In this document: positions 18,380-48,095 of the stretch, piece after piece
How the letters are laid out: every line of letters begins with the position of its first letter
How positions within the stretch are numbered: position 1 is the stretch's first letter
Assembly (NCBI GenBank): GCA_963749915.1
Contig: CAVVOP010000025.1
Coordinates: forward strand, 1-64,000
From: an uncultured cyanobacterium
Lineage (GTDB): Bacteria; Cyanobacteriota; Cyanobacteriia; Cyanobacteriales; Cyanobacteriaceae
Direction: 5' to 3'
DNA: 64,000 nt
Notes under the pieces: model-generated
What the model was told of the DNA's origin: nothing
Databases searched by the model: none
Seen by the model: the letters and a program-made list of their open reading frames with translations, nothing else
Made by a program: the position numbers and the translations under genes

Positions 18380-18543
18380 AATATCTAATAGACATCTCCA
18401 ACCGACATTCAGCAGATTAATGTGGAAAAAAAATAATTTTAAAACTCCAAGATAACAAAGGTTTCGACGATTTGGTCTAGCTCCCCAGGTAGGCGAAGTG
18501 ATAAAGTATTCTGAGATTTTAGCAACTTTTTCTCTCAAGGCAA

Positions 18544-19263
18544 TGAATCAACCTCTGGACATTGATGTACAGGACATCGATCATCTTGGAATAATCGCCG
18601 GCATCATCAATGAGATCGGGATTGTCGAAATCACTAATCGCCTGTTGGGAACACATCCTCTGGAAGAAGTCAGTGCTGGCCACGTGGTCAAAGCCTTAAT
18701 TCTCAGTCAGAGACTGACTCAGGTGAGATGAGCCCTCTAGAGCAATCCAATGGACAGAAGGCAGAAGCAGAGGACTCAGCAGAGCCCGTACCGATAGAGA
18801 TTACCCACGGCTATTCGAGAGACCATCATCCTGACTTAAAACAGTATACCCTGGCACTGATCACCAGTGGCGATGGTGATGTCCCATTATACTTACGAGT
18901 GGGGAATGGCAACGATGCTGACCAAGCCGTGTTTACCGAAGTGATTGCACAATTTCAGCAACAGTGGAAAGCTGCAGAGCCTGAGGTCTATGTGGCTGAT
19001 GCCGCTCTCTACAATGAAGAGAACTTGGTAGCGTTAGGACAGACTCCTTGGATTAGTCGTGTGCCTGCCACCATTGCTGAGGCTCAACAGTTAATGCAAA
19101 CCCTACCCCAGGAAATGTTCGCCAGCCAGTTCCGGGAACAGCTACTCTATGGCTGAAGTGTGCAGCACCTACGCAGGAGTCCGCCAGCGCTGGCTTGTGG
19201 TCCAAAGCGAATCGCGCCAACAAGCAGACCTCAAGCAATTGAACCAGCGCATTGCTAATGCTA
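18544..19263 (+). mobile_element. IS1634-family transposase remnant (internal deletion, frameshift, truncated)
   Basis: DIDVQDIDHLGIIAGIINEIG; ITHGYSRDHHPDLKQ; YVADAALY; cut at CCTACATTCCGCA near 19267; higher GC than flanks. Confidence 0.85.
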
Positions 19264-19404
19264 AAACCTACATTCCGCAGGTTTCTCAACAGAGGAAATA
19301 ATATTTTTGACAGGCCGAACCGAGGAAGCGCAAAATCAACCTTTGTAAATCGCTCAACTTGATTGACCCCTAGTTCCTGAAGTGCTTTGACTTTCTTCGT
19401 TTTA

Positions 19405-20612
19405 GCCCACATTCCGCACTTCACTTTGTAAGATGATAAAAGTATTAAAACCAAGCAACTTATTTTGGACAAAATATAAGTAATAATACTCAATATCTTC
19501 TTTATTCGCGTTTTGTACTCGCGAACTTTGCTCAAATTAAAATCTCATTGTCAATAACTTCACCTTTAATGAGAATAAATAAACAGAGCAAATCTATCAG
19601 TTTTCTCTTCTTTATTTATGGTATTATAATTGAGAATGTTTAGACTCTTAAATCCCATAAGTTATCCAGATAAAATATAATAATTATGACAAGAAATCGG
19701 GAAAAAACTTAAAATTAGTTTTCGTTCATTTGTTAGATTTACTATCTGTTTTATTCCTTGATTTATTACTAAATGAATCCCCTGAAAACATTGAAATATC
19801 CATCTTAACGTTGGACGTTCCGTTAGTTTTCCCAGCTGATTTTTTATCCCCGTTTTTCTCTCCTCTAATAAGCGACGCACTTCTCTTTGCCCCAAAGAAT
19901 ATACTAACAGACATAACCCCATCAACATTGCCATTGTTTCGATTCTTTTTGGGGTTTTTAAAAACACACTATCTGCAAAAAATAATGGCTCTTTCAGAAA
20001 ACTAAAACCTCTTTCTGCGGCTTGTTGCTCTTTATACTTAATTAAAATTTCATCAGAATTAAATTTACTTTTATCCAATCTATTTGTAGCTAACACAAAT
20101 CTTCCTGCTCTTTTTTTTGATTCGTTTATTTTCGTTAAATCTGATTTCAAAATAGCCGTAACTTGATAAGTTTTTCCCGATTTTTCTTCTTTCTTTTTCG
20201 ATTTTTTCTTGTGATTATTTAACTCACTTTCTGTCATTTTTAGCTCGGTTATGTGATGATATTTTAAAGTCTTATTTAGTCTCACAACTGTTTCATAAGC
20301 TCCCTCTGATGGCCTAAATTCTTCCTTCATCAATTTCTTTAATATTTCTTCGGTTTTTTCTTTTTCTTTCTCTATTTTTTCCCTTAGTTTTTCTAGCTCT
20401 GATACTTTTCTTTTTTCACTTTCTACTATTAACCATCTTTGCTCAATTTCTGCATAATTATTCCTTACTTCACACCATGAATATCCTTCTAAACTACTTG
20501 GAGTCAAATCAGATTCTGATAGTTCTGAAACTAAATTTTTTGCCTCTTTTATTGATAGTGGCACTCTCGATAACCATTCTATTCCACTCATTTTCGCTAG
20601 CTGAATTTTCTC
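19405..20612 (-). mobile_element. IS1634-family element, 3' part with right end
   Basis: WLSRVPLSIKEAK...YKEQQAAERGFSFLKEP...PTLRWIFQCFQGIH (stop at 19662); end CCCACATTCCGCA near 19406; the track ORF's N-terminus is read-through from the next IS. Confidence 0.85.
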
Positions 20613-21176
20613 TTTGTTCACTATTTGGTCGCAAATGGCATAGTTGTTATGAGGCAATCCAAGATTCTCGCCCCAATAGCAATAAACTGATGAAAAGATA
20701 TGTTCAAGAAATACCTCAACTCGAATATATCTTATTGGGTATCGACAATACTCATTGGGAATTGAAAGATGCTCCCACCATGAAAGATAGAGGCTATCAA
20801 TACAAGAGTTCATCAATGAATTCATCAATCAAGGGACTCGGATATAGTACCATTGCATGGTTACCACAGTTAGAGGCAAAGGGAAGTTGGACATTACCCC
20901 TCAGACACGAAAGAATTACCTCATTTGAAACCGCAATCTCTAAAGCAACTTGGCAACTCAAACAAGTATCAAGATATTTACCCCAGAAGCTCAACAAATT
21001 ACTGGTCTTAGATTGTGAATATGGCAATGGTGTCTTTGTGAAACAAACCGCAGACATCAAAGTGAGTAAATTAATCAGAATTAGATCTAATTGTTGTTTA
21101 TATACAGAGCCAGGAAACTACTCAGGAAGAGGAAGACCAAGGAAACATGGACATAAATTCAAACTCAATGATCTTT

Positions 21177-21731
21177 CTAACTTTTCACGGCATCTTTTTC
21201 GGTTGACAGGTGTTAGGTGTTAGGGGTTGGGTGTTAGGATTAGGGATTGAGGATAAGCTTTAATAGTTGAACAGTCAAAAAAAACACTTAGAAACTGATG
21301 GGAATACAATCCTATAGAGACTTAAAGGTTTGGCAAACAGGCATGGATTTAGCAGAAGAATGCTACTTAGTTACTCGCAATTTCCCCAAAGAAGAACTTT
21401 ACGGGTTAATTTCTCAGATTCGTCGAGCATCAGCCTCTATTCCCGCCAATGTCGCTGAGGGGCATGGTCGAAAAACCCGAAAAGAATATATACAGTTTTT
21501 ATACATAGCACAAGGCTCTCTTAAAGAATTAGAAACTCATCTTTTATTGTCGAAAAGGGTAAAGTTAGGAGAGGGGAAAGTCATTGATTCTCTTTTAAAT
21601 AGATGTGAATCCCTCGGAAGATTATTATCAGCATTGATTCGTGCCCTCGAAAACAAAAACTGAATTTTCCCTATCACCCAACCCCTAACACCCAAACCCT
21701 TTCTCAGGGAAAAGATACCGTGAAAAGTCAG
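21177..21731. mobile_element. Non-autonomous TIR element with cargo gene
   Basis: Ends CTAACTTTTCACGG / CCGTGAAAAGTCAG; 10-bp target duplication AATGATCTTT at 21167-21176 and 21732-21741. Confidence 0.9.
21298..21663 (+). CDS. Four helix bundle protein (23S rRNA IVS protein family)
   Basis: SYRDLKVWQ...FPKEELYGLISQIRRASASIPANVAEG...FLYIAQGSLKELETHL. Confidence 0.93.
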   Translation: MGIQSYRDLKVWQTGMDLAEECYLVTRNFPKEELYGLISQIRRASASIPANVAEGHGRKTRKEYIQFLYIAQGSLKELETHLLLSKRVKLGEGKVIDSLLNRCESLGRLLSALIRALENKN

Positions 21732-22591
21732 AATGATCTTTCCACTCATTTCACCGCAGATGAAATAGCAGAAGTAAATGATGAGTCCTTAGGGTTAATC
21801 AAAATCAGTAAATGGAGTAACTTGCACTTTCGTAATGCTTATGAGCAAAAACTGAGTTTGATTAAAATAGAAAGATTGTCGGAAAAGAAAACAGGGGAAA
21901 AACATCGTCCACTATGGTTGATTTGGGTAGGAAAACAATTTTTAGAGTTAGAAAAAATCTGGTCGCAATATGCTCGAAGATTTGGAGTAGACCATTGGTA
22001 TCGATTTGCCAAACAGAGATTACATTGGAATTTACCGAAGTTGGGAACAACCGCTCAATGTCAAAGATGGAGTGATTTGATAGTGAATATGACATGGCAG
22101 TTATGGTTGGGAAAAGACTTAGTAGAAGAAAATCATCTACCTTGGCAAAAACCACAGGAGAATTTAACACCTCAAAGAGTAGCACAGTCAATGTTTTCAC
22201 TTTTAATCGAGATTGGCTCACCCACCAAAGTAGCTAAAACCAGAGGAAAATCAGTTGGATGCAAGAAAGGTAAAAAAAGAATGAAAAGAAAGAGATATCC
22301 ACTGGTGAAAAAGCGACAATCAAAAAGTAAAAAATCAGCAAAAAAGGCAGCTTAAGATCATAATTTAGGAAAATTATGTTTGATTTCAGTTAATTTTATT
22401 TAGCTGAGTTATTGCTATGTCAAATTTTATTTAGTCTAAAGTACAGTTGAAAATCTCACTATTCTTAATATTTTGATAAAATCTACATAATCAAATTATC
22501 CGAAATTTGCAACTTTTAACCCTTGACAAAATTTAGAAAATATGTGTAACATCCTCTCGGCACGCTATTTTTTAATAAAAGGAGAATTTTT

Positions 22592-47122: not shown

Positions 47123-48095
47123 AAAAATTCCTCCATCGAAAAACCTACTTTCTCTAACTGTATTTTAATCTCTTAATCCAAAGCCAAGCCTTCGCGCATT
47201 TGTTCTGCCAACTCCTGCGTTAAAGCCTCCATCTTCTCCTCAAAAGGTATGCCATCATCCTCTTCATCAGGAATTCCCACATAACGCCCCGGAGTCAAGA
47301 CAAAATTACGCTTTTCAATCTCCGCTAACGTTGCCGACTTACAAAAACCCTTAACATCTCTATAACTCCCCTCGCCTTTTGGGAGAGGGTCTGGGGGTGA
47401 GGGCTTCTTCTTCCACTCATGATAAGTATCAGCAATTTTGGCAATATCTTCATCACTAAAAGCCCGATTACGGCGATTAACCATATAACCCAACTCCGAG
47501 GCATCAATAAATAACACCTCACCCTTACGCGATCGACTCTTATTGCCGTTTTTATAGCGACTGAGGAACCATAAACAAGCAGGAATCCCCGTATTATAAA
47601 AAAGCTGGGTGGGCAACATCACAATACAGTCCACCAAATCAGCCTCTACTAAAGCCTTACGAATATCTCCCTCACCACTGGTATTAGATGATAACGAACC
47701 ATTAGAGAGGACAAACCCAGCCGAACCCGTAGGGGATCTGACTTTTCACGGCATTTCTGAAAACCCGTTCAAATAAGGGTTTCCCTCCCAGGCTGATTCT
47801 CAATAATCTCTGCTTAATGATAATGGACAACGAAAGAGTCTGGCTTGGAGAGGGGGAATTTGGCGATCGCCTGAGAGCAGAAAAAGATCCCGTGAAAAGT
47901 CAGTTCATAAATCCCTTCTCCTGCGATTAACTTCTGGTGCAACTCCTCAAAAGCATCCGAGATGTATTTGAGAAAGATTAAACCCAAGACAATGTGCTTA
48001 TATTCTGCCGCATCAATATTTTTGCGGAGTTTATCTGCTGATTTCCAGAGTTTTTGTTCAAAAGTATCGGTATCTGCTTGTTTTTTCTTTGGCAT
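47119..48095 (-). pseudogene. hsdM: Type I R-M methyltransferase subunit M, disrupted
   Basis: [36 protein letters not shown] at 47738-47903 replaces the centre; [11 protein letters not shown]...[12 protein letters not shown]...LTPGRYVG; premature TAA at 47173, tail EIKIQLEKVGFSMEEFL*. Confidence 0.9.
47738..47903. mobile_element. 166-bp MITE, same terminal-repeat family as 21177-21731
   Basis: CTGACTTTTCACGG...CCGTGAAAAGTCAG, perfect 14-bp inverted repeat; no target duplication. Confidence 0.88.

Follow-up and report, generated by a model that had tools for sequence, protein, structure and literature searches.

The locus analysed here raises the question of how a small gene, of a family first met in ribosomal RNA intervening sequences (IVSs), comes to lie within a short element that has no transposase, what moves that element, and whether the gene has any part in the movement. 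The family, PF05635, is widespread, and we know of no settled function for it. In the window, a 64,000-nucleotide stretch of DNA from an uncultured cyanobacterium (source genome G000; C-numbers denote its contigs), the cassette occupies positions 21177 through 21731 (555 bp; Table 1). Its 14-bp terminal repeats differ by one mismatch, the whole inverted repeat spans 72 nt at 81% identity, and the 18-bp cores of the two inner heptamer arrays are exact reverse complements. The only long open reading frame (ORF) is the 121-residue cargo gene; no transposase is encoded. A terminal repeat combined with a target duplication occurred in 0 of 60 random intervals used as a chance control. The initial annotation had described the ends, the 10-bp duplication, the heptamer cores and the single gene without a transposase, and all were recovered, positions included. 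We consider it probable that the cassette is a transposase-less mobile insertion cassette (MIC), present in 12 copies, whose ends are likely moved in trans by an IS4 element on contig C20, and whose gene and arms are likely a captured passenger, dispensable for transposition.

Table 1. Features of the cassette, its host gene and a gene-less relative in the window
Feature	Position	Strand	Remarks
Interrupted host, NF041680-family transposase	20593..22355	+	Interrupted by the cassette; 5' end truncated by an IS1634 fragment; distinct from the helper
Left target duplication copy	21167..21176	+	Perfect 10 bp, AATGATCTTT; empty form in run X6
Left terminal inverted repeat	21177..21198	+	14-bp core; 20/22 bases identical to the right end; 18 of the first 19 identical to the IS4 left end (G000:C20:161811)
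Left heptamer array, G-rich arm	21209..21255	+	Perfect core 21216-21233
Cargo gene, 121 aa, four-helix-bundle/23S rRNA IVS protein	21298..21663	+	PF05635, TIGR02436
Right heptamer array, C-rich arm, mirror of the left	21664..21700	+	Perfect core 21675-21692
Right terminal inverted repeat	21710..21731	-	14/14 core bases identical to the left end of the C20 IS4 element
Right target duplication copy	21732..21741	+	Perfect 10 bp, AATGATCTTT
Gene-less 166-bp MITE	47738..47903	.	14-bp ends of the cassette; no target duplication left

When the cassette and one target copy are excised in silico, the frame of the host transposase is open to its stop at 22355, and a contig from run X6, a separate sediment study, joins position 21166 straight to 21732 and thus represents the empty site; both bear out the earlier claim that excision restores the host frame. 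The host gene is broken twice: the cassette interrupts it, and an IS1634 fragment truncates it on the 5' side at about 20593. The region from 18498 to 22355 is a nest of mobile elements in which IS1634 fragments accompany the 5'-truncated NF041680 transposase and the cassette within it. The host transposase was rejected as the mover of the cassette: its flanks lack the cassette ends, and the other cassette copies sit elsewhere. Target duplications are about 10 bp long for members of the IS4 family but about 5 for IS701-type families (PMC2266710), so the length of the cassette duplication fits IS4 and not the host.

The BLASTN count proposed in the initial annotation returned 12 full-length copies in G000, all cargo-bearing. 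Ten are identical, one has a single base change (G57S), and one is 558 bp long with indels and a broken frame. Distinct perfect duplications flank eight of the 12, 10 bp long in six and 9 bp in two, and their sequences reveal no clear consensus for the target. The other four, two of which lie within repeated host elements, have none, as might follow from adjacent deletions or rearrangements; in the C19 copy, which comprises host and cassette, the right flank is as in the window and ∼226 bp are missing on the left, a loss that fits an adjacent deletion. Four insertion sites were found in both states, with and without the element: the window site, which is vacant in the X6 contig; that of the C34 copy, with an empty 99% identical paralogue on C31; the L092 site, where a cassette identical in sequence, flanked by a new 10-bp duplication, occupies a position that is empty in G000; and the flank of the element on a contig of run X1 (which may be the source sample), which occurs four times in G000 without the element. 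Because it has its own target duplications and sites in both states, the cassette has really transposed; it has inserted repeatedly at unrelated sites and is a real, recently active, IS4-derived element. A single cargo-bearing copy with a cargo-free MITE at the same site, the situation that the annotation had named as contrary to its reading, was not encountered: there are 12 copies, and the empty site contains no MITE. Beyond G000, the left-end pattern occurred in 0 of 400 other genomes of the phylum, an exact cassette 36-mer had 0 matches in JGI metagenomes, and 60 relatives contained no full-length copy.

Pairing of all end-like sites in G000 yielded a single long element, C20:161811-163312 (L342:1236-2737; 1,502 bp), whose left end is identical to the cassette ends at 18 of 19 and 14 of 14 bases. 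The search for an autonomous IS with the cassette ends, suggested with the initial annotation, thus returned this IS4 element. Its DDE transposase matches NF033590 at 335 bits (cut-off 160) and has a complete YREK motif (Y-2-R-3-E-6-K), and its N-terminal piece matches NF049926, "IS4_FS_Nterm," at 100.7 bits. The frame breaks near codon 55 at a five-T site. The same break is kept in 13 of 13 copies of the C20 clade (5 genomes, 68 to 76% DNA identity), which argues that the transposase is recoded rather than decayed and speaks against a dead pseudogene or an assembly slip; the break is probably a programmed −1 recoding site, at which the full-length transposase would be made. The name of the NF049926 model suggests that NCBIfam curators are aware of the break; a literature search on the five-T break in this clade found nothing. 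A related element in G437 has two copies in frame, and a related IS copy, L357, has a 10-bp duplication; the C20 element itself is single-copy and has no target duplication, which weighs against it as helper. An intact 475-residue IS4 on C19, the other IS4 over the cut-off, was rejected as helper because its ends differ. Also against it, in the L092 bin the ends of the resident IS4 copies differ at 2 to 3 bases, though the cassette copy there is identical. Members of the IS50 subgroup of the IS4 family have 5'-CW ends and 8- to 9-bp duplications (PMC2266710); the ends here begin with CT, and the duplications are mostly 10 bp. Judged by its ends, the C20 IS4 is the likely mover of the cassette in trans. 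Movement would proceed by cutting and pasting of the IS4 ends, copy number rising through donor repair or replication.

The same ends also enclose elements without any gene. The 166-bp MITE of the window has a twin at G000:C21:57850 with its 10-bp duplication present. Stretches with the cassette end numbered 102 in GTDB genomes, of which 80 were retrieved; 38 rows among the 80 are gene-less MITEs of 165 to 168 bp, 20 of them with 8- to 11-bp duplications. This MITE family abounds both in G437 and in several marine cyanobacterial assemblies. Cassettes with a broken gene were found as well. In G015 (L323 through L337), 10 of 18 family matches lie inside a complete cassette, and only one of the 10 has a whole ORF; eight of the 10 share one nested insertion, at different sites, and eight have a perfect duplication, from which it follows that the broken cassette kept transposing. 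These G015 copies form a second cassette family, with 7-bp AT-rich duplications, which was amplified mostly after a nested MITE broke the gene. The cargo is also broken in the L119, L115 and C9 cassettes. Gene-less MITEs and ORF-broken cassettes together establish that the cargo gene is not needed in cis for transposition; intact genes may supply the cargo protein to such elements in trans.

The intact 121-residue IVS-type gene reported between the heptamer repeats is a full member of its family, with 131.9 bits for PF05635 (cut-off 33.8) and 126 bits for TIGR02436 (cut-off 24). Its closest solved homologue is the pentameric XCC0516 (PDB 2GSC; five chains, E 6e-21). Other PF05635 genes in G000 are likewise bordered by mirror heptamer arrays, of different sequences. 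We surveyed such arms at 89 related loci, 83 of which had enough flank, with 502 ORFs as controls. Period-7 arrays stand on both sides at 50 of the 83 family loci vs 6 control ORFs, an exact inverted match of ≥10 bases at 57 vs 36, and the two features occur together at 37 vs 0. Two naked relatives, L234 (89% identical over the matched part) and L222 (83%), have the arms but no IS ends and lie between ordinary genes, so the arms were rejected as parts of the transposon ends. On this comparison of sequences, the heptamer arms are a trait of the PF05635 gene family and not of the transposon; the inner repeat of the initial annotation is present, but it belongs to the gene. Since the arms go with the gene and naked close relatives exist, the simplest origin of the cassette would be acquisition of IS ends by a naked unit, in which two such ends came to lie on either side of a small intergenic gene unit that was already palindromic.

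A sibling cassette, L223, shares the end family, is flanked by a 9-bp duplication and carries an unbroken ORF (85% identity). In the tree, the naked L234 is nested between both cassettes (support 90/84), with p-AU = 0.196 in the single-clade test, a value compatible with one capture as well as with several. Comparison of the two intact cassette-borne genes gives a dN/dS of 0.22 (Fisher p = 3e-6), which points to purifying selection on the cargo for part of its history, whether within a cassette or outside one, and the ORF is open in 11 of the 12 cassette copies. A degenerate remnant of the cargo gene, 81% identical and without recognisable ends, lies at G000:C21:307346-307687.

Association of IS ends with this gene family is recurrent. 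Four end families enclose different PF05635 members: that of the present cassette, with 9- to 10-bp duplications; CTGACGTTACGCA, with 7- to 8-bp duplications, in G015 and on C27 of G000, the same ends also flanking an IS701-like transposase fragment; GGCTCTTC, with an 8-bp duplication, in G003 and G006; and CAATACTGC, with a 10-bp duplication, on C9 of G000. As far as the ends can be read, PF05635 genes have thus been captured by at least four different IS-end families. A de novo repeat scan of G000 gave 50 candidates, of which three combine IS-like ends with a non-transposase gene, and all three genes are of the PF05635 family; the other single-copy hits were treated as chance. The two further G000 cassettes, L029 (C9:68747-69327) and L002 (C27:123849-124373), differ in their ends and in their four-helix-bundle genes, of which the one on C9 is frameshifted. 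Of 33 family loci, a strict detector scored 2 as enclosed, or 5 when the short-ended family was added, and of 65 wider loci it scored 1; the 33 omit the copies of the present cassette and most broken G015 copies, and five loci were dropped for short flanks. With 5 of 33 sampled loci enclosed, cassettes are one route by which PF05635 genes spread, a minority route and not the main one. The earlier proposal that these genes travel on MITEs mobilised in trans therefore holds in that the element is non-autonomous, has transposed and is one route of spread, but it accounts for a minority of loci; and gene-carrying elements that lack a transposase already form a known class, the mobile insertion cassette.

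The RNA fold predicted for the cassette is a long stem formed by its termini, which leaves the ORF in the loop (z −3.86; matched by 0 of 100 shuffled sequences) and agrees with the IVS-like stem anticipated in the initial annotation; the sibling L223 is predicted to fold likewise (z −2.87). A consensus scan of the + strand within the cassette found no promoter, and no terminator was found. If the gene is expressed, read-through from host promoters would yield a transcript closed by the long stem. In a screen of 20 loci that covered all 12 copies, no Rfam match reached the gathering score, and none of the copies lies in rRNA; one snoRNA match below that score was set aside as chance. IVS-like processing of a cassette transcript is accordingly a model prediction.

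These observations bear on whether the cargo aids the element instead of merely travelling with it, a reading that we regard as rather unlikely. An Avd-like pentamer might bind the heptamer stem, as RNA or DNA, and assist pairing of the ends, or RNase III might trim the stem from transcripts and so ease the cost of insertion; if so, capture of PF05635 genes by several IS families would be explained. Passive capture, conversely, hardly explains why all three of the recognised gene-carrying non-autonomous elements in G000 hold this family, and the purifying selection between the L223 and window genes also speaks against a passenger. The different members within four end families, the open ORF in most copies, the long stem predicted for both cassettes, and the homology of PF05635-type proteins to DGR Avd described in PMC10053308 are all consistent with a helping role. 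Against it stands the transposition of gene-less MITEs and ORF-broken cassettes, although supply in trans from intact genes may apply. Insertions also occur in either orientation to the interrupted gene (the same in the window and at L092, opposite at C26, C10 and C34), and IVS excision by RNase III is described as proceeding without subsequent ligation (PMC4990558), so that an mRNA could not be mended. Sense and antisense arm duplexes were equally stable (45/83, p = 0.21), so that strand asymmetry, tested as a sign of selection on the RNA, was not observed, and the cargo protein scores 22.3 bits on the bAvd profile, below the cut-off of 40. A broader version, to which we give only a small chance, would make the heptamer-armed four-helix-bundle unit an accessory module, captured by unrelated IS families for its help, with an Avd-like pentamer recognising the arms and promoting end pairing or RNA processing; rRNA IVSs would then be stranded copies, and the gene-less heptamer hairpins of cyanobacteria deletion products. 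Were this true, the cassette would lend itself directly to an assay, since it has 12 copies and a candidate helper.

A different history, concerning the origin of the cassette and not its present spread, is that the gene-plus-arms unit was mobile by another route and entered existing MITEs, the transposase only amplifying the product later. The same end family encloses an unrelated family member (L119, 39% identity) and gene-less arms (L090); the end found upstream of the gene in the present cassette is downstream of it in L115; and naked units sit between unrelated genes. This history is nonetheless quite improbable, in that G000 holds no gene-less element with both 33-bp cassette ends (a solo end at C19:20272 is all that was found), the cassette lacks the interior sequence of the 166-bp MITE, the empty window site contains no MITE, and naked units have no target duplication under the detector used. 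Collapse of a repeat during assembly could also have created the copies artificially, as the four without duplications, two of them in repeated host elements, might suggest; this is scarcely credible, given that eight copies have perfect duplications of their own, four sites exist filled and empty, and another assembly holds a copy at a new site.

We thus retain capture of a passenger gene by IS4-type ends and compare the element with known systems. MICs consist of IS-related inverted repeats round a passenger gene without a transposase, as in MIC231 of the IS231 subgroup of the IS4 family (PMC6199540), and the class is also named in PMC3129680. The cassette has two IS-related ends, a passenger gene, no transposase, IS4-type duplications of about 10 bp, and a cognate IS in the same genome; every MIC feature open to testing by sequence is present, and on these grounds it is a mobile insertion cassette on IS4-family ends. 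It differs in size (555 bp, whereas 700 bp to 3 kb is quoted for MICs in PMC6199540); in its ends, which come from a Tn5-like NF033590 element and not from IS231; and in its cargo, a PF05635 gene with its own palindromic arms, in 12 near-identical copies, for which mobilisation in trans is suggested by the shared ends. Like the cyanobacterial MITEs Nezha and MaeMITE, it is small and multi-copy, has a hairpin and terminal repeats shared with an IS, and knocks out genes; unlike them, as described in PMC3184786 and PMC10969869, it holds a complete, conserved gene of a named family instead of no ORF or an orphan ORF. With ORF-bearing 23S rRNA IVSs (Coxiella S23p, Leptospira; PMC4990558) it has in common the protein family, a long predicted stem that holds the ORF in its loop, a similar size and frequent ORF decay, but its copies lie outside rRNA and have IS ends and target duplications, so the likeness is one of layout only. 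DGR Avd (PMC10053308) has a related four-helix-bundle fold, and the closest solved relative, XCC0516, has five chains; the cargo, however, is under the bAvd cut-off, and the element contains neither a reverse transcriptase nor a template repeat.

The MIC class and the IS4 mechanism are thus already known, and what is unusual is the recurrent PF05635 cargo. Our search of main texts found no literature linking the family to MICs or MITEs (the MITE table of PMC3542288, with elements up to 541 bp, may include some), and the passages surveyed in PMC10969869, PMC3542288 and PMC3184786 do not mention this cargo. Horizontal spread of IVSs has been proposed on account of their patchy distribution (PMC4990558), no vehicle being given; the copies, filled and empty sites and candidate helper described here provide a concrete vehicle for horizontal spread of PF05635 genes. 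This is tempered by a mechanism of ordinary IS4 biology, a cargo that looks dispensable, and the location of most family genes outside cassettes.

Insertions of the cassette have fallen in other IS elements, in spacers, in an AAA ATPase gene and in an anti-phage gene, and thereby knock out genes. In the last case (L394:615-3699, on C10), the copy splits a phospholipase-D/SNF2 gene (NF042964), likely a defence knock-out. Another region, L396 (G434:C132), is collinear with G000 C8:428-442 kb over ∼14 kb at 98 to 99% identity, yet argH is 74% identical; this may reflect either recent sharing of an island or a misbinned contig, and we do not claim horizontal transfer. One copy, L007 (C21:70463), is inserted within the heptamer array of another repeat. 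The duplications at L090, L119 and C9 are also pyrimidine-rich repeat sequence, which may be a hint as to how IS ends come to flank the arms.
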